DNA from: a virus
Taxonomy: Duplodnaviria; Heunggongvirae; Uroviricota; Caudoviricetes
Virus record (IMG/VR): IMGVR_UViG_2690316278_000003
DNA length: 4,877 nucleotides
Direction: 5' to 3' (one strand)
Shown: piece after piece, positions 1-4,877 of the stretch
How the letters are laid out: every line of letters starts with the position of its first letter
Position numbering within the stretch: position 1 is the first letter of the stretch
The notes under the pieces: generated by a model
What the model was told of the DNA's origin: nothing
Seen by the model: the letters and a program-made list of their open reading frames with translations, nothing else
The model's database searches: none
Made by a program: the position numbers and the translations under genes

Positions 1-297
1 ATTGATTTCATCAAACTGCTCATCGTCCATTAGCAACCCCGCATGCGTCAGCGCATCCAGCGGCGCTTTCAGAATATTGTCCAGGTCACGGCGGCGCTTA
101 TCCGGTGGTTCTGCAATAATTTTTATTGCCAACCTTCCGGACAGGCTTAATTTCAGCCGCTGCTGGCGAACAATAAGCGCCACTGCCCGGCGATAACGCT
201 CCCCGGCTTTTGATACAAAATATGTGCTGCCACGACGACGCCAGTAAGTGTTCACCGTCGGCGGGTAAGGTAAAACAAATTCTATGCGCTCGGTCAT
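1..297 (-). CDS. rusA: RusA-family Holliday-junction resolvase, partial (N-terminal 99 codons; C-terminus lies beyond the left window edge)
   Basis: Minus-strand ATG at 297..295 directly after the TAA of the upstream gene (TAAATG). Hand translation gives MTERIEFVLPYPPTVNTYWRRRGSTYF...IIAEPPDKRRRDLDNILKAPLDALTHAGLLMDDEQFDEIN with no stop down to position 1. The PD(K/R)RRRDLDN...DAL...DD block matches the RusA motif recalled from E. coli RusA. Not in the supplied ORF track. Confidence 0.8.
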   Translation of the reverse strand, partial: MTERIEFVLPYPPTVNTYWRRRGSTYFVSKAGERYRRAVALIVRQQRLKLSLSGRLAIKIIAEPPDKRRRDLDNILKAPLDALTHAGLLMDDEQFDEIN

Positions 298-1356
298 TTA
301 TGCTTTCCACTTCAGAACACCCGAATTTCTCGCGTGCATTAAAAAACGAATCAGCAACAACAGCTGACTGCCGTGTTTCTCTTCAAAATCTTTTACTCCG
401 GCATGTAGTTCGTTACGGCATTTACGGCATAACGGAATAACAAACAAATCATCAGCCTTTGTTCCCATCCCTCCCAGTCCATGACCAATGATGTGATGCG
501 GATCATCTGCCTGATTGCCACACGTCATGCATTTCTGCGTTTTTACCCAGCGCGTGTATACAGGCATCTCTTCCCGTTGTGATTTCTGGCGCTGGAGATA
601 CTGAGCCGGTGACTCCGGATCAACGGCAATGCTGACCACCGTCTTTTCCTGTGGTGGGTTCTGTTGCTGGTGGACGTGAGGCAGTAACGCAATATTTTTT
701 GTGCGCTGCTTCAGTATGCTGGTGGCTGTCTGCTCTCCCGGTATGATGTCGCTTTCACTGTACACAGAGCGAATTTTTTCCGCACGCAACCCCAGCGAAC
801 GACGTAATACCGCTTCCGGTAGCGCGTCCGCCACCTGATTGCGGACCGCCCACCAGGATAATTCAGCCAGAGATAATTCACGCTCCTGCGTACCGCTTAT
901 TGCGTGACCGATGACGTCAATCATCCATGCTGACAGGTTTTGATGAGCAAGTTGCTCGAGTGATTCGGATGTCTGGTCACGCAGCTGGTTGTCGCAGTGC
1001 CAGCACAACACCATTGCGCCGGTACCATAACGGTGAATGACGGTTTCGCTGTGATGATAATCGCCGTGTGGCCACTGGCAGGATTTAATATGGCGCAACA
1101 GCCAGTCAGACAATGCACCAGCACCACCAGCAGCACGAATCACCCGTGCGTTACTGAAAAACGGCAGCAATGTTTTGTCTTCCACCAGCGGCTGGCGAGC
1201 GGCAGGAACGACCCCGGACGGCAGATTACGCATGCTTTTTGGTTCCGGCTCCACCAGTATTCTGCCGTTATGGAATGCTGACATTGATTCACGGCCTGGC
1301 TTAACGATAACCAGACCGAGTTCCGGTACCAGAACAGGTCGAAGTAATACCCGCAC
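298..1356 (-). CDS. YdfU-like phage protein (DUF968-type) with Cys/His-rich HNH-like C-terminal motif; 352 aa if the GTG start is used
   Basis: Long 352-codon minus-strand ORF. Apparent start is GTG at 1356..1354, 4 nt after a GGAGG SD and just after the upstream TAA. C-terminal region has CMTCGNQ...DPHHIIGHGLGG...LCRKCRNELH. Size and position (after a rem-like gene, before rusA/Q) match ydfU of the K-12 Qin prophage by recollection. Start codon is uncertain; the first in-frame ATG is codon 25. Confidence 0.75.
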   Translation of the reverse strand: MRVLLRPVLVPELGLVIVKPGRESMSAFHNGRILVEPEPKSMRNLPSGVVPAARQPLVEDKTLLPFFSNARVIRAAGGAGALSDWLLRHIKSCQWPHGDYHHSETVIHRYGTGAMVLCWHCDNQLRDQTSESLEQLAHQNLSAWMIDVIGHAISGTQERELSLAELSWWAVRNQVADALPEAVLRRSLGLRAEKIRSVYSESDIIPGEQTATSILKQRTKNIALLPHVHQQQNPPQEKTVVSIAVDPESPAQYLQRQKSQREEMPVYTRWVKTQKCMTCGNQADDPHHIIGHGLGGMGTKADDLFVIPLCRKCRNELHAGVKDFEEKHGSQLLLLIRFLMHARNSGVLKWKA

Positions 1357-1357
1357 A

Positions 1358-1636
1358 TTACCTCCAGATCCGTTGCTGGAATGTGCGGGACGGACGCGTT
1401 GGCCGTTCGGAGTAAGGGAGCCTGACGGAGATTATCCAGTGACGGTAGTCGAGGCTAAGGGCTTTTTTAACCTCGCATCCGCGCCTGCGGTAACACTGAA
1501 TGAGCCATTCGGCCTGTTCTTCAGTGCATGGGGGATGCTGGTACCAATCAGATTTAAATGCGTGAGAGCGCCGCCCGTGCCTGCTGGCAAAGACGGCTGA
1601 ATTATCAGAATTGTGTAGTCTGGAATTTTGCGCCAT
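1358..1636 (-). CDS. hypothetical small protein (92 aa), translationally coupled to the downstream YdfU-like gene
   Basis: ATG at 1636 preceded by GGAGAAAGCCG (SD-like), the same initiation context used by the 200-aa gene in the other module copy. Stop TAA at 1360..1358 abuts the YdfU-like start. Unusually rich in rare AGG/AGA codons, so coding status is uncertain. Confidence 0.45.
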   Translation of the reverse strand: MAQNSRLHNSDNSAVFASRHGRRSHAFKSDWYQHPPCTEEQAEWLIQCYRRRGCEVKKALSLDYRHWIISVRLPYSERPTRPSRTFQQRIWR

Positions 1637-1702
1637 CGGCTTTCTCCGGTGGCACAGTGTTACTCAACAGGGGTTCAGCCCTGCGCTGAATTGTAGATGA
1701 AT

Positions 1703-1963
1703 TCACTCATCTTCAAAAGCAGAAAAACCAGCCTTAATCCCAGCTTCTTTCAGAGACGGCAACGATGTGACAAATTCATTTGCACGCGAAATAAAACCAT
1801 CCGTCACAAGCCCATCCACAAAATGAATTAACGCAGCTCCACTCTTCCTTTGTTGAGACTGTAAACATTTAATACGGCAGTGGCTGACAATAGCGCCATT
1901 CTCAACGCGCACAGTATAGAGGCCATCTTCACTAAAAATTTCACGTAATTCTTCGATTTTCAT
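1703..1963 (-). CDS. Rem-like small phage protein (86 aa), paralog of the ORF at 4295..4582
   Basis: ATG at 1963..1961 with GGAAGGA SD 8 nt upstream; begins MKIEELREIFSEDGLYTVRVENGAIVSHCRIKCLQSQQRKSG. About 85% identical at its N-terminus to the second copy. Placement directly downstream of hok mirrors the hokD-rem arrangement of the K-12 Qin prophage (recalled synteny, not a sequence match). Confidence 0.7.
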   Translation of the reverse strand: MKIEELREIFSEDGLYTVRVENGAIVSHCRIKCLQSQQRKSGAALIHFVDGLVTDGFISRANEFVTSLPSLKEAGIKAGFSAFEDE

Positions 1964-2083
1964 CAACAGAATCCTTCCAGATAAATAGCACTCCCCTGTT
2001 CGGGGTCCATCCCTCTTCTCCCTGCGCGCTACTTAAGTATTTTTGATTCTATTCCGGCACCATCTAAAACTTCAAACGCGTTG

Positions 2084-2115
2084 AAAATAAAAACAAAAAC
2101 CCGCCGAAGCGGGTT
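2084..2115 (-). terminator. Rho-independent terminator downstream of hok copy 1
   Basis: Minus strand reads CCCGC-TTCG-GCGGG followed by TTTTTGTTTTTATTTT (plus-strand stem 2100-2104/2109-2113, A-tract 2084-2099). Confidence 0.6.
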
Positions 2116-2183
2116 AAGTGTGGGTGCATTGAGGATGCCTGACCCATCAGAGGTGGCGAGGGATTTCTCCCCCGCCTGGTCTC

Positions 2184-2339
2184 TTACTCCTCAGGTTCGT
2201 AAGCTGTGAAGACAGCGACCTCCGTCTGGCCGGTTCGAATTCGTACCTCGCAGAGGTCTTTCCTCGTTACCAGTGCCGTCACTATGACGGTTAAACAGAT
2301 GACGATCAGGGCGATTAACATCGCCTTTTGCTGCTTCAT
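2184..2339 (-). CDS. hok: Hok/Gef-family type I membrane toxin (51 aa)
   Basis: Hand translation from ATG 2339..2337: MKQQKAMLIALIVICLTVIVTALVTRKDLCEVRIRTGQTEVAVFTAYEPEE, matching the Hok/Gef family and closely the HokD/RelF sequence as recalled. Strong SD AAGGAGAAG upstream. The track ORF 2184..2396 is the same frame with a 19-codon in-frame upstream extension (MNGKSRLASYVPKGKEKQA) that lacks an SD. Confidence 0.9.
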   Translation of the reverse strand: MKQQKAMLIALIVICLTVIVTALVTRKDLCEVRIRTGQTEVAVFTAYEPEE

Positions 2340-2404
2340 AGCCTGCTTCTCCTTGCCTTTCGGCACGTAAGAGGCTAACCTAGATTTGCCGTTCATAGAT
2401 TGAG

Positions 2405-2469
<65 letters not shown>

Positions 2470-2471
2470 GC

Positions 2472-2548
2472 TGGCCCACCACCGAGGACTCGAACCTCGC
2501 ACCGTCAACTTAGAAGGTTGATGCTCTATCCGGATGAGCTAGTGGTGG
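2472..2548 (-). tRNA. tRNA-Arg (anticodon UCU)
   Basis: Minus strand CCACCAC-TA-GCTC-ATCCGGATA-GAGC-A-TCAAC-CTTCTAA-GTTGA-CGGTG-CGAGG-TTCGAGT-CCTCG-GTGGTGG-G-CCA. All 7 acceptor pairs, anticodon stem and T-stem form; 77 nt with encoded CCA. Anticodon TCT in a 7-nt loop. Confidence 0.85.
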
Positions 2549-2549
2549 T

Positions 2550-2626
2550 TGGTGGCCCTTGCTGGACTTGAACCAGCGACCTGGCGATTATGAGTCGCTC
2601 GCTCTGACCAACTGAGCTAAAGGGCC
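2550..2626 (-). tRNA. tRNA-Ile2-like (anticodon CAU, ileX/ileZ type; automated tools may call it tRNA-Met)
   Basis: Minus strand GGCCCTT-TA-GCTC-AGTTGGTCA-GAGC-G-AGCGA-CTCATAA-TCGCC-AGGTC-GCTGG-TTCAAGT-CCAGC-AAGGGCC-A-CCA; 77 nt, acceptor fully paired, CCA encoded. Acceptor and T-arm closely resemble E. coli ileX as recalled. Separated from tRNA-Arg by 1 nt. Confidence 0.85.
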
Positions 2627-2635
2627 GGAGGCAGA

Positions 2636-2665
2636 ATAATAACCATATGTCATCACATCTGCAAA
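2636..2665 (-). promoter_or_regulatory. Candidate sigma70 promoter for the tRNA cluster (weak -35, good -10)
   Basis: Minus strand TTTGCA/TTGCAG (2665-2659), 17-18 nt spacer, TATTAT (2641-2636), then GC-rich CTGCCTCC before the tRNA-Ile 5' end at 2626. By-eye hexamer match only. Confidence 0.25.
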
Positions 2666-2712
2666 CTCATCTGACCACCAGCACGTTTAACGTCCTGTGC
2701 CGTTTTTCAGGT

Positions 2713-2738
2713 ATAAAAAAACCCGCATAAAGCGGGCT
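2713..2738 (-). terminator. Rho-independent terminator about 80 nt downstream of the Q-like gene (tR'-like position)
   Basis: Minus strand GAGCCCGC-TTTAT-GCGGG followed by TTTTTTTAT (plus-strand stem 2722-2726/2732-2736, A-run 2713-2721). Confidence 0.55.
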
Positions 2739-2815
2739 CTTTCAAATGTCCATGTCTGCTATTCGCCTCGCGGTACAGCTTTGCGAAGCGTACAAGAATT
2801 GAAGCAGTTTTTACG

Positions 2816-3370
2816 TCAAAAAGCAATAACTTTTTTCTCTATACCAAAAGCCATAACCATTGGTTTGTACAAAATAAATTCTGCCACCTTTAGCCAATGC
2901 TCAATGCGTCTTTCACAGGTTCTTAAACTCCATTTCGGGTGTGCATCATTCAGCAGTTCAGCCATTTTGCGTTTGGTCATCCCCCGCCCCTCATACCGTT
3001 GCCGAAGGACGCTAATCAATCCTGGATGCTCTGCCAGCACCTCACTTATGACCCGATCAATACATAACGCCTCTGCATCAGTACAATGCGCCAGCCAGCT
3101 CTTTTGCTTACCGTTAATCATATCCCGCAAAAAAGCCTCAAGTTCAGACTTGTTCAGACCTGCTTTTTTCATCCTCCGGAGCGCCTCGTTAATTGCCGTT
3201 TTTGTCAGCTTTTTAGAGGTCAACATCAGGTTAAACATATTCCCCGTCTTACCGCCACCAATATACGACCAGCGCCCCCACATACGTAGTTTTCCCTGAA
3301 TCCAGACACTTTCCAGCGTGGTGAGACGAAGGTGTTCTCCGCTTTTTCCTGTATTCGTTGGGTAAATCAT
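2816..3370 (-). CDS. Putative late-gene regulator in the antiterminator-Q position (184 aa); assignment by synteny only
   Basis: ATG at 3370..3368 preceded by AAGGAGG, overlapping the YbcO-like stop (TTATGA). Product begins MIYPTNTGKSGEHLRL. Sits between a ybcO-like gene and the terminator/tRNA cluster, where Q lies in lambdoid and Stx phages. No Q sequence motif recognised. The 40-codon upstream extension in the track is rejected. Confidence 0.55.
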   Translation of the reverse strand: MIYPTNTGKSGEHLRLTTLESVWIQGKLRMWGRWSYIGGGKTGNMFNLMLTSKKLTKTAINEALRRMKKAGLNKSELEAFLRDMINGKQKSWLAHCTDAEALCIDRVISEVLAEHPGLISVLRQRYEGRGMTKRKMAELLNDAHPKWSLRTCERRIEHWLKVAEFILYKPMVMAFGIEKKVIAF

Positions 3371-3657
3371 AAATATCCCTCCTTTCTCCAGATTTCTTGT
3401 GTGCGAAAAACACCTTCTGCATGCATCAGGCGTAATTCTTCTTTGGTGTAATCGCTGGTTTTTACCCGCCCGTCGATTAAATCGTGGCACGAGCTACAGG
3501 CAATCGCTGCCTGCATATCGTGTGGCTTTATCGCTGTTCCGCACGTTCCCGCCAGTCGGTAATGCGCCAGCACAGACGTTTCCGGATCGTGATTGCAGTA
3601 GCCAGGAATTCTGACGGTGCACATCTGCCCCCGCGCCGCTTTACGTAAATCCACCAT
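3367..3657 (-). CDS. ybcO: YbcO-like (DUF1364) phage protein, putative nuclease, 96 aa
   Basis: MVDLRKAARGQMCTVRIPGYCNHDPETSVLAHYRLAGTCGTAIKPHD...IACSSCHDLIDGR matches the recalled DLP12 YbcO pattern (ADLRKAARG..C.VRIPG.CN..PETSVLAH.RL...). ATG at 3657..3655 overlaps the upstream TAA by 1 nt. Confidence 0.85.
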   Translation of the reverse strand: MVDLRKAARGQMCTVRIPGYCNHDPETSVLAHYRLAGTCGTAIKPHDMQAAIACSSCHDLIDGRVKTSDYTKEELRLMHAEGVFRTQEIWRKEGYL

Positions 3658-4256
3658 TACGCAAACTCCAGCAGCTGCGCGGCCACATTTTCGACTTGTT
3701 CCGGAGAGGAAAATTTACGGAACAGAATCCAGTTCCACAGCACATTCAGAACAGATTTATAAACCTGCTGAAACTCGGTTTCGTCCATATTCGCAAACGC
3801 GATAGATTTCGCCCGACACCCACGGCTACCGTCCGGATAAAAATGCTCGGTGTAAAATCCAGCCTGAATGGTTACCCACTCGCGAAAAGCCTCAAACGAC
3901 TTTAGCAATGCCGTATCCCGGGTTCTGCGTGTCGCAACTGTATTCAGATATTGCTCTGCGGCTTCGCTCAGAGCTGGCGTATGTTCCCGGCCTACTGATT
4001 CACACAGGTAATCAACGAAACCGGACACCAGTTTTCGTTCGCGAGGCGTGATCGCCCCACCGACCGGAGTCCAGTAATCGAAACCCAGTTGCAGGAGTTT
4101 GAAAAAACGCTTGTGGAATGCGTAGTTACACACACGCTTAAAGTCTGCGTGTATCCACTCACCTATTTTGATTTGATGCAGAAAATCGCAACTCTCCGGC
4201 GTCGCCGGGAGAAGTAATCCGGAAGAGGTTTGTTTGACCAGTTGTATATGTGCCAT
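3657..4256 (-). CDS. Hypothetical phage nin-region protein (200 aa), possibly DUF1367-family
   Basis: ATG at 4256..4254 preceded by GGAGAAAGCCG; product begins MAHIQLVKQTSSGLLLPATPE. Continuous ORF to TAA at 3659..3657, coupled to ybcO. The track's 14-codon 5' extension has no SD. The DUF1367 suggestion rests on typical prophage gene order and is unverified. Confidence 0.7.
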   Translation of the reverse strand: MAHIQLVKQTSSGLLLPATPESCDFLHQIKIGEWIHADFKRVCNYAFHKRFFKLLQLGFDYWTPVGGAITPRERKLVSGFVDYLCESVGREHTPALSEAAEQYLNTVATRRTRDTALLKSFEAFREWVTIQAGFYTEHFYPDGSRGCRAKSIAFANMDETEFQQVYKSVLNVLWNWILFRKFSSPEQVENVAAQLLEFA

Positions 4257-4294
4257 CGGCTTTCTCCGGTGGCACGGTGTTACACAGCAGGAGT

Positions 4295-4582
4295 TCAATC
4301 CTGCTCAAGATTGTAGATGAGTTTATTCTTCAGCAAAAGCAGAAAACCAGCCTTAAAACCAATCTCTTTCAAAACCCGTAATGATGTGACAAATTCGTCC
4401 TCACGCAAAATAAAACCGTCCGTCAGAAGTCCATTACAAAAATAAAATAACACAGCACCGCTCTTCCTTTGTTGAGATTGCAAACATCTAATGCGGCAAT
4501 GGCTGACAATCGCTCCATTCTCAACGCGCACAGCATAGAGGCCATTTTCACTAAAAATTTCACGCAATTCTTCGATTTTCAT
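4295..4582 (-). CDS. Rem-like small phage protein, second copy (95 aa, divergent extended C-terminus)
   Basis: ATG at 4582..4580 with GGAAGGA SD; MKIEELREIFSENGLYAVRVENGAIVSHCRIRCLQSQQRKSG. Paralog of 1703..1963; the C-terminus differs after KAGF because of a 1-nt difference in a homopolymer. Confidence 0.7.
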   Translation of the reverse strand: MKIEELREIFSENGLYAVRVENGAIVSHCRIRCLQSQQRKSGAVLFYFCNGLLTDGFILREDEFVTSLRVLKEIGFKAGFLLLLKNKLIYNLEQD

Positions 4583-4700
4583 CTTCAGAATCCTTCCAGA
4601 TAAATAGCTCTCCCCTGTTCGGGGTCCATCCCTCTTCTCCCTGCGCGCTACTTAAGTGAGTCGATTCTATCTGCGAAGGTGCGCGAATCAAATTCACCGG

Positions 4701-4754
4701 AAATAAACAACAAAAAACCCGCCGAAACGCTGAGAGATCACAGCGATGGGCGGG
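4701..4754 (-). terminator. Rho-independent terminator downstream of hok copy 2 (extended two-part stem)
   Basis: Plus-strand CCCGCC (4718-4723) pairs with GGCGGG (4749-4754), with an inner CGCTG/CAGCG stem. On the minus strand it is followed by a T-rich tract (plus-strand A-tract 4701-4717). Positional homolog of the 2084-2115 terminator. Confidence 0.5.
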
Positions 4755-4831
4755 TTAAGTGCGGGTGCGTTGAGGATGCCTGACACATCAGAGGTGGGCG
4801 GGGATGGGATCAGCTCCCCGCCCGGTCACTC

Positions 4832-4877
4832 TTACTTCCTGGATTCGTAGTCTACGAAGACAGCGACCTCCGTCTGG
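4832..4877 (-). CDS. hok: Hok-family toxin, second copy, partial (C-terminal 15 codons plus stop; rest beyond the right edge)
   Basis: Minus-strand translation of 4877..4832 gives ...QTEVAVFVDYESRK then TAA, homologous to the C-terminus of hok copy 1 (QTEVAVFTAYEPEE) and other Hok/Gef proteins. Embedded in the duplicated module. Confidence 0.7.
   Translation of the reverse strand, partial: QTEVAVFVDYESRK

Follow-up and report, generated by a model that had tools for sequence, protein, structure and literature searches.

The DNA considered here is a stretch of 4,877 nucleotides (nt), referred to as the window, from the IMG/VR virus record IMGVR_UViG_2690316278_000003 (Caudoviricetes), in which two genes of the Rem antirepressor family, rem copy 1 and rem copy 2, each follow a closely similar segment of about 75 nt, referred to as the block. 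Ragunathan et al. (2023, PMC10448788) showed that Rem is an antirepressor of DicA that lifts the repression of the Qin dicBF operon, with dicBp derepressed 165-fold by ectopic Rem; they stated that the signal inducing Rem is unknown and described the related Gifsy antirepressors as LexA-controlled (PMC10448788). The promoter or leader of rem is described neither in that paper nor in the other literature searched. The Pfam family of the protein, PF27490, is found in Escherichia and Shigella only. All the genes of the window lie on the minus strand, and the features of the two rem loci are as follows:

Positions 2046..2075, minus strand: predicted sigma-70 promoter of rem copy 1, with the -35 hexamer TTGAAG (2075-2070), an 18-nt spacer and the -10 hexamer TAGAAT (2051-2046).
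Positions 4664..4691, minus strand: predicted sigma-70 promoter of rem copy 2 (TTGATT, 16-nt spacer, TAGAAT).
Positions 2007..2029 (2029..2007 in the direction of transcription), minus strand: 23-nt core GCGCGCAGGGAGAAGAGGGATGG of copy 1, at about +10 to +32 of the predicted transcript.
Positions 4626..4648 (4648..4626), minus strand: core GCGCGCAGGGAGAAGAGGGATGG of copy 2, identical to that of copy 1.
Positions 2023-2011, minus strand: purine tract of copy 1.
Positions 2010..1963, minus strand: mini open reading frame (mini-ORF) of copy 1, MDPEQGSAIYLEGFC, 15 codons, with a TGA that shares its A with the rem ATG (TGATG).
Positions 4629..4585, minus strand: mini-ORF of copy 2, MDPEQGRAIYLEGF, 14 codons, with a TGA followed by AG and then by the rem ATG at 4582.
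Positions 1993..2005, minus strand: hairpin CCCC-GAACA-GGGG of copy 1 (CCCC 2005-2002, GGGG 1996-1993), beginning 5 nt after the mini-ORF ATG.
Positions 4612..4624, minus strand: hairpin CCCC-GAACA-GGGG of copy 2.
Positions 1972..1978, minus strand: Shine-Dalgarno (SD) sequence of rem, GGAAGGA, 8 nt before the ATG and invariant in the close set.
Positions 1703..1963, minus strand: rem copy 1, 86 amino acids (aa), PF27490, 74% identical to K-12 Rem.
Positions 4295..4582, minus strand: rem copy 2, 95 aa, with a C-terminus altered by a frameshift relative to copy 1.

The two blocks (1964-2038 in copy 1) are identical at 72 of 75 positions (96.0%), in agreement with the three substitutions counted in a preliminary description of this DNA, which had also placed the hairpin, the purine tract and both mini-ORFs correctly. 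The identical run of 46 nt reported there exists; its true length is 48 nt (1991-2038 = 4610-4657), and the earlier mapping was off by 1-2 nt. The related claim that the block is better conserved than rem holds for the gene as a whole, identity being 79.6% from rem nt 61 to the end (codons 21 onward; Fisher p = 7e-4 against the block), but not for the first 60 nt (20 codons), where it is 95.0% and does not differ from that of the block (p = 1.0). The segment of low divergence therefore extends from about -75 to +60 around the rem ATG. Upstream, the two copies are 34% identical between the hok terminator and the -10 hexamer, 63.7% in the hok 3' untranslated region (UTR) and terminator (p = 4e-8 against the block), and 80.4% at the 3' end of the hok coding sequence. 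The block thus stands out from its neighbours, and it also does so beyond the window: in a set of 75 unique homologues, the leader has a nucleotide diversity of 0.076, as against 0.139 for rem as a whole and 0.222 for the third codon positions of rem.

Around 400 homologous loci were compared. They come from IMG/VR prophages, from species-representative genomes, from 16 deposited phage records and from contigs that encode the most divergent Rem proteins; a metagenome scan that used the core as its pattern supplied others. Many genomes contain several copies, at up to 5 places per genome. The hok/sok locus lies directly upstream in all classes whose upstream sequence is readable, with the exception of locus L322, in which the rem promoter is preceded by another gene and its terminator. 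In one metagenome contig (L319, OGHK01012368.1), foreign DNA from about nt 150 onward, which judging from its ORFs is probably an insertion sequence, breaks rem 7 nt past the start codon and leaves the promoter and leader intact. Separately, a 38-aa "hypothetical protein" with a GTG start is annotated across the hok terminator and rem promoter in three phage records (L242, 2406-2522; L259 and L260, 306-422) and is very probably a spurious call.

The preliminary description had listed a promoter or operator among the possible functions of the block. A sigma-70-type promoter is indeed predicted, and it lies just upstream of the block. In both copies, hexamers close to TTGACA and TATAAT are separated by 16-18 nt, as sigma-70 promoters require, and each promoter is the sole promoter-like match of a promoter scan in its region (1600-2450 for copy 1, 4200-4877 for copy 2); in these same two regions, there is no antisense promoter at the scan threshold. 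Transcription of rem copy 1 would start at around 2039, and that of copy 2 at around 4658, some 7 nt past TAGAAT. The TAGAAT hexamer is invariant in 75/75 unique sequences, and it is 100% identical even in loci where Rem is only 52-60% identical or is undetectable by BLAST. A TTGnnn motif lies 16-18 nt before it in all 12 upstream clusters, which are mutually unalignable; between the -35 and -10 hexamers, the two copies of the window are themselves unrelated in sequence. In the 75 unique sequences, the 7-8 nt that follow TAGAAT vary freely, and conservation restarts at the predicted start. A sigma-32-like reading of the plus strand was rejected, the match being weak. No LexA box (CTGT-N8-ACAG) was found at up to two mismatches in 1970-2257 or 4534-4727, nor by eye in the upstream classes outside the window, and no mapped start for the hokD-rem spacer appears in the papers and supplements searched. 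We read the block as the predicted, transcribed 5' leader of rem, under rem's own putative sigma-70 promoter situated between the hok terminator and the block. The presence of a rem promoter with a functional leader is, on these sequence signatures, very likely, and it is as such a predicted promoter and leader that we accept the earlier view that the region controls rem.

Within this leader, the core is purine-rich and contains two SD-like motifs (GGAG and GAGG) together with the ATG of the mini-ORF. It is 96-100% identical in all Rem classes, including the Rac type (in which the Rem protein has 52-60% identity) and the 58-aa Rac-SA53 form, as compared, in the same class comparisons, with 42-65% in the 60 nt upstream, 38-69% in the spacer from the -10 hexamer to the core, 72-93% in the rest of the leader and 46-73% in rem beyond nt 60. 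The suggestion that constraint acts at the level of DNA or RNA is borne out by this identity of the core and of the -10 hexamer across divergent Rem classes; in the loci whose Rem is 52-60% identical or escapes BLAST, all flanks fall to 38-80%. In three metagenomic loci, the promoter, core and hairpin are followed by an unrelated 3' leader and by a 55-aa ORF (MNDKELIAALSVPGNYEVIVLENGEF...) that is faintly Rem-like and not recognisable by BLAST; homology to these loci stops directly past the hairpin. The core occurs only once in the 44-kb genome of a PPompW phage and, in the sample, solely upstream of rem-like genes. Its ATG is kept in essentially all loci, the sole exception seen being L170, a recombinant within the leader that is without the core, and at least one of GGAG and GAGG is intact in every core-retaining leader variant. 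The constrained pieces would then be the -10 hexamer, the 23-nt core, the GC hairpin of 4 base pairs (bp) behind the AUG and, in most classes, rem's own ribosome-binding site; the Rac-type (GGAAAAT) and MNDKE-type leaders have another sequence in place of the rem SD.

Other observations concern resemblances of the core. The translation-initiation region of hok, GCAAGGAGAAGCAGGCTATG (2337-2356), resembles the core sequence GCAGGGAGAAGAGGGATG (2008-2025), which may reflect shared ancestry or merely SD-rich sequence. By eye, the dicA-dicC operator region bears no obvious likeness to the core or leader. A homopurine mirror repeat, AGGGAGAAGAGGGA, was considered as H-DNA and rejected as too short and as broken in the K-12 type.

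The hairpin varies in a patterned way. All 25 variants of the hairpin region retain a GC stem of 3-5 bp (98% of cells paired). Substitutions, like the five independent indels, lie mainly in the loop, for which GAACA, AAACA, GAGCA, GAAA, GAGA, UAAA, UCA, GAA, UUAA and AUAAA were found. The changes in the stem are solely C-to-U and solely in the 5' arm, so that a G-U pair is preserved in the sense RNA. Loops such as GAACA, GAAA and GAGA on a CCCY/RGGG stem recall the boxB of phage lambda, which is GCCCU-GAAAA-AGGGC, and the hairpin might accordingly be a boxB-like nut (N utilization) element that loads an N-type antiterminator on transcripts from the rem promoter. This is hardly credible: the leader has no boxA (CGCTCTTA-like), no N gene is annotated in PPompW-type phages, the 44-kb PPompW genome has no second hairpin or second copy of the core, and the loops of the K-12, Rac and MNDKE classes (UAAA, UCA, UUAA) are not of the GNRA type, AUAAA occurring too.

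Further RNA structures were sought and set aside. A long-range helix between the leader GCGCGC and rem +47..+57 (UGCGCG), predicted by RNAalifold, was rejected because changes on its 3' side are uncompensated, and an outer helix of the centroid structure, UAAGUAGC/GCUAUUUA, is unsupported, being broken in the K-12 and L081 classes. Rfam 15 gave no credible match over 1963-2040, with none at E up to 1 in the whole-window scan; a permissive scan of the block (E up to 10) returned just two models, both of eukaryotic microRNAs, at 15-19 bits (gathering thresholds 60-100), which we take as chance. Matches to isrK, rsmX and sok were rejected as identities for the block, since they are located on the hok locus or on terminators.

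A serious rival to the interpretation of the block as a control element in the mRNA is that the core, alone or together with the CCCC-N-GGGG inverted repeat, serves as a DNA operator at which a host repressor other than LexA blocks RNA polymerase past the start, the SD motifs, ATG and mini-ORF being incidental. Lying at +10 to +45, these elements occupy a position typical of roadblock operators; the core is common to the Qin/DicA-type and Rac-type prophages, which differ in immunity, and therefore fits a common host factor. The RNA has no special stability, and the hairpin of the MNDKE class is a perfect 12-bp palindrome, CCCCTTAAGGGG. The core itself, however, lacks dyad symmetry, and conservation begins at the predicted start, not over the promoter; moreover, the strand asymmetry of the stem changes is relevant to RNA and not to a symmetric protein site, and no known operator consensus was recognised, the LexA box included. 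Weighing these points, we consider an operator unlikely.

The mini-ORF takes several forms:

Window type and Rac-SA53 (MAPIKGNAIYLEGF, TAATG overlap): 14-15 codons.
K-12/Qin type (ATG GTC CCT TAA, that is, MVP-stop): 3 codons.
Rac-442/2 and MNDKE types: 8 codons.
Variants with one additional G, 21 loci of the IMG/VR and genome sample: fused in frame to rem.
Variants with one nucleotide less: running out of frame into rem.
Several loci: point nonsense mutations.

Among 128 unique segments, the mini-ORF has 14-15 codons in 52 cases and 3 codons in 50; the others have 8 codons or a premature stop, or run into rem, either fused in frame or out of frame. In all, 59% have a broken frame. In each of the three samples read, the 3-codon form outnumbers every other: it accounts for 65/120 metagenome matches and about 80/232 IMG/VR loci, and among the complete genomes of E. 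coli 2063/3022 records fall in the identity band of the sequence-checked K-12 locus, the one locus of that band that was read. This form is also present in the isolated phages mEp460_ev081, PhiR42_1 and HannyBb. The mini-ORF stop abuts or overlaps the rem start in the window and SA53 class; in other classes, it lies 34, 22, 20 or 8 nt upstream or 23-32 nt inside rem, or the frame is fused, so that comparison of the leader classes reveals no stop/start overlap conserved across homologues. An SD-like motif and a start codon of its own were found in all core-retaining variants.

Purifying selection on the mini-ORF peptide was not detected by codon-position diversity, substitution counts or frame-shifting indels. 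Diversity at the three codon positions is flat in the mini-ORF (0.062/0.098/0.116) in comparison with rem (0.098/0.108/0.272), which served as the reference in this form, as the crude synonymous/nonsynonymous count for rem was made on unaligned sequences and provides no control. The distinct codon changes in the mini-ORF comprise 3 synonymous, 12 nonsynonymous and 4 involving stops, and six or seven independent indels in it have lengths not divisible by three. A conserved leader peptide, one of the options of the preliminary description, is not supported in view of these flat codon positions, 3:12 substitutions and frameshifts. Nor is an obligatory coupled frame of 14-15 codons, present in only 52 of the 128 segments, disruption in most homologues being what we observed; the weight given earlier to this frame was misplaced.

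The idea that a 14-15-codon leader ORF is coupled to rem through overlapping stop and start codons, with selection for either the coupling or the peptide, is nevertheless not without attractions: both copies of the window and the divergent Rac-SA53 keep 14-15 codons that end in TGATG, TGA-AG-ATG or TAATG, the SA53 frame has been kept through an in-frame 3-nt deletion, and Gifsy-1 orf45-anrP offers a precedent (see below). Set against these are the broken frame in the majority of unique segments and in the commonest natural form, that of the three isolated phages, along with the frame-shifting indels, nonsense changes, substitution ratio and flat codon positions, by which the peptide version is largely refuted. 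The idea as a whole appears to us quite improbable.

The SD-like sequences might also be read as binding sites for a global regulator that acts on RNA; the candidate is CsrA, which would occupy the GGA motifs of the core and of the rem SD and repress translation until it is titrated. There are six GGA motifs in about 60 nt, although GGA is also plain SD-like sequence and the two cannot be distinguished here. The core consensus for CsrA obtained by SELEX (systematic evolution of ligands by exponential enrichment) is CARGGAUG, to which CAGGGA and AGGGAUG in the rem core correspond, while the rem SD overlaps with AAGGAUU; a CsrA dimer could span the distance of about 43 nt. Structure prediction does not place the motifs in hairpin loops, however, the site overlapping the SD is lost in the Rac-type and MNDKE-type leaders, and rem was not found in the accessible part of an E. 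coli CsrA supplement on CLIP (crosslinking and immunoprecipitation) and ribosome profiling. CsrA is, in our estimation, improbable. As regards Hfq, the supplements searched for CLASH (crosslinking, ligation and sequencing of hybrids) or RIL-seq (RNA interaction by ligation and sequencing) contain no rem entry.

The uniformity of the block could have arisen without any role beyond that of the promoter if the block were a recombination "linker" at a junction of the lambdoid mosaic, homogenised between co-resident prophages. Homology breaks sharply at the -10 hexamer and right past the hairpin, many genomes are multi-copy, and the third codon positions in rem nt 1-60 are unusually uniform (0.06 versus 0.27), as in a recently exchanged segment. 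Exchange, however, accounts for the spread of the block and not for 23 nt at 96-100% identity between flanks of 7-16 nt that vary freely, nor for a patterned variation in which the loop is free and the stem fixed, the -10 hexamer is invariant and the TTG of the -35 hexamer is kept in unrelated sequence. Recombination at mosaic junctions thus probably contributes to the uniformity and cannot explain this pattern; as a full explanation, we give it little credence.

We propose, tentatively, that the promoter and leader together make up a portable cassette controlling Rem-family antirepressors, with selection at the level of the nucleic acid and a translational mechanism, a proposal that, taken with this mechanism included, we put at somewhat less than an even chance. 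What the compared sequences show directly is the pattern of conservation, the signature of the promoter and the absence of constraint on the peptide, and the conserved elements accompany Rem-family antirepressor genes across prophages with different immunity regions. In the proposed mechanism, the core would be the main site of ribosome entry and of regulator contact in the rem mRNA. Ribosomes starting at its AUG would read a short, arbitrary frame whose stop lies anywhere from 34 nt upstream to 32 nt downstream of the rem start. Such translation would influence rem initiation by maintaining an open leader, through termination-reinitiation or through occlusion. Both the factor that silences the antirepressor in the lysogen and the signal that releases it would act on the core and the hairpin. 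The start of transcription, the translation of the mini-ORF and any trans-acting factor are thus predicted elements of the proposal.

Several results weigh against this proposal. The position of the mini-ORF stop is so variable, from 34 nt upstream to in-frame fusion, that no single coupling geometry is selected. The GCGCGC at the 5' edge of the core is invariant, and ribosome binding does not explain it. None of the 25 hairpin variants has a double-sided compensation in the stem, so that an RNA structure is compatible with the data and unproven. The minimum free energy of the leader RNA, -16 kcal/mol, corresponds to z = +0.43 against shuffled sequences, and the antisense strand to +0.48; hence, neither strand is a structured RNA. 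A DNA operator would yield the same conservation pattern. Finally, the literature and supplements searched contain no transcription start, ribosome footprint or binding factor for the rem leader.

If the cassette proposal is correct, the cassette would be the obvious site where the Rem-inducing signal must act and would constitute a compact target of about 90 nt. It is conserved in cryptic prophages and in viable phages with different immunity regions, including carriers of Shiga toxin or type III effectors, and it could reveal how cues other than the SOS response reach the switches of lambdoid prophages in E. coli. A bolder extension is that the invariant -10 hexamer, core and hairpin make up a cis-regulatory "receiver" common to the Qin-, Rac-, PPompW- and mEp460-type prophages of Escherichia, through which one host factor or signal controls Rem-family synthesis; we regard this as a possibility with the balance against it. 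Were it true, the SOS-independent induction of several prophages, or the expression of DicB/DicF, would be coordinated in one cell.

The surroundings of the two rem loci, in the direction of transcription, are as follows:

First, minus strand: hok-2, cut by the window end; a terminator-like hairpin; block copy 2; rem-2 (4582..4295).
Next, downstream of rem-2, minus strand: a DUF1367 gene; a YbcO-family gene; a Q-type antiterminator gene (DUF1133); two transfer RNA (tRNA) genes and a truncated third.
Then, minus strand: mok/hok-1 (2396..2184); terminator (2115..2098); block copy 1; rem-1 (1963..1703).
After rem-1, minus strand: a 92-aa ORF; a DUF968/YdfU gene.
Positions 2098..2115, minus strand: intrinsic terminator of the hok-1 mRNA, with a 7-bp stem (AACCCGC-TTCG-GCGGGTT) followed by a T run.

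The window corresponds to the "nin-like" early-right region found in Qin-, Rac- and PPompW-type lambdoid prophages. Complete phages have dicA and dicC first, then the replication genes, hok and rem, followed by either ydfU or DUF1367-ybcO and finally by rusA and Q. From its sequence, the hok-1 terminator would insulate the rem promoter from transcription entering from upstream. The window (1-4877) contains two tandem hok-rem modules with DUF1367-YbcO-Q and the tRNA genes between them, and it looks as if two early-right prophage regions had been joined. It is colinear in no complete E. coli genome searched, the best match having 80% cover and 90% identity in 6 pieces. The truncated third tRNA (2404-2462; Rfam 33.5 bits, model positions 8-63 only, and not reported by ARAGORN) adjoins the mok start (2396) and marks the junction of the modules. 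Two weak matches to Rfam isrK lie on the minus strand, one at 2094-2175 (25.7 bits, gathering threshold 50), spanning the hok 3'UTR hairpin and the terminator hairpin, and the other at 2716-2789 (19.9 bits, same threshold), on a terminator-like hairpin 3' of Q. In Gifsy-1, IsrK is placed between Q and an antirepressor operon (PMC4825925). A LexA-box-like sequence with one mismatch, CTGAAAAACGGCACAG, is present at 2695-2710, just past the terminator-like hairpin 3' of Q.

Downstream of rem, another hairpin lies between the gene and the ribosome-binding site of the next gene (1663-1690, minus strand, past the rem-1 stop; about 4284-4308 in copy 2). Its stem covaries, being GCGGGG/CUCCCGC in K-12, CAGGG/CCCUG in copy 1 and GCAGGA/UCCUGC in copy 2, and the loop YUGAAC and the following GAGTAACACYGTGCCACCGGAGAAA are kept across classes. 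In the ydfU-rem spacer of K-12, a small transcript, "IGRSTe", has been reported (supplement of PMC4681348).

Control of a phage antirepressor by a leader or an upstream ORF is of a known kind; the rem cassette itself is absent from Rfam and from the literature searched. It is distinct from the hok/sok type I toxin-antitoxin system, the block being downstream of the hok terminator and outside the hok mRNA and its fbi, tac and sokT elements; K-12 retains the block though its hokD has lost mok/sok. In the immI region of phage P1 (c4 RNA-icd-ant) and in P22 (sar RNA-ant), the antirepressor is controlled after transcription starts; in P1, ant expression is linked to the translation of an upstream ORF, and both phages use a dedicated antisense or processed RNA. 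At rem, in contrast, no antisense promoter or complementary RNA was found in 1600-2450 or 4200-4877.

The layout of the rem loci is close to that of the Gifsy antirepressor loci, which have a terminator, their own promoter and the antirepressor gene, in the nin region (PMC3121763). Like Gifsy-1/2/3 (gfoA, gftA) and 186 tum, rem encodes a small antirepressor of a short, non-cleavable repressor of the DicA/GfoR type (PMC3121763), and it shares with them a position in the nin region downstream of the replication genes and a promoter of its own behind a Rho-independent terminator. Unlike these LexA-controlled Gifsy and 186 loci, and unlike the LexA-repressed antirepressor promoter of N15, the rem copies are without a LexA box, and their conserved element is in the transcribed leader, not over the promoter.

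The likeness extends further in the isrK-orf45-anrP region of the Salmonella prophage Gifsy-1, where orf45 precedes the antirepressor gene anrP with overlapping stop and start, its translation is needed for anrP, and its nucleotides are conserved while the peptide varies (PMC4825925). In both systems, a small ORF conserved in nucleotides and not in amino acids lies directly before an antirepressor gene, beside the region of a Q-type antiterminator and behind a terminator hairpin. The differences are that the Gifsy-1 promoter lies upstream of the terminator, read-through and the short, trans-acting IsrK RNA activating orf45, whereas the rem promoter lies downstream of the terminator, the rem leader is not strongly structured and has no known partner RNA, and the weak isrK matches of the window lie outside the block. 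Judged by size and annotation, AnrP (187 aa) is not a homologue of Rem (86 aa), and the comparison is therefore one of analogy, not of family membership; as an analogy, Gifsy-1 orf45-anrP is the closest functional counterpart of the rem leader.

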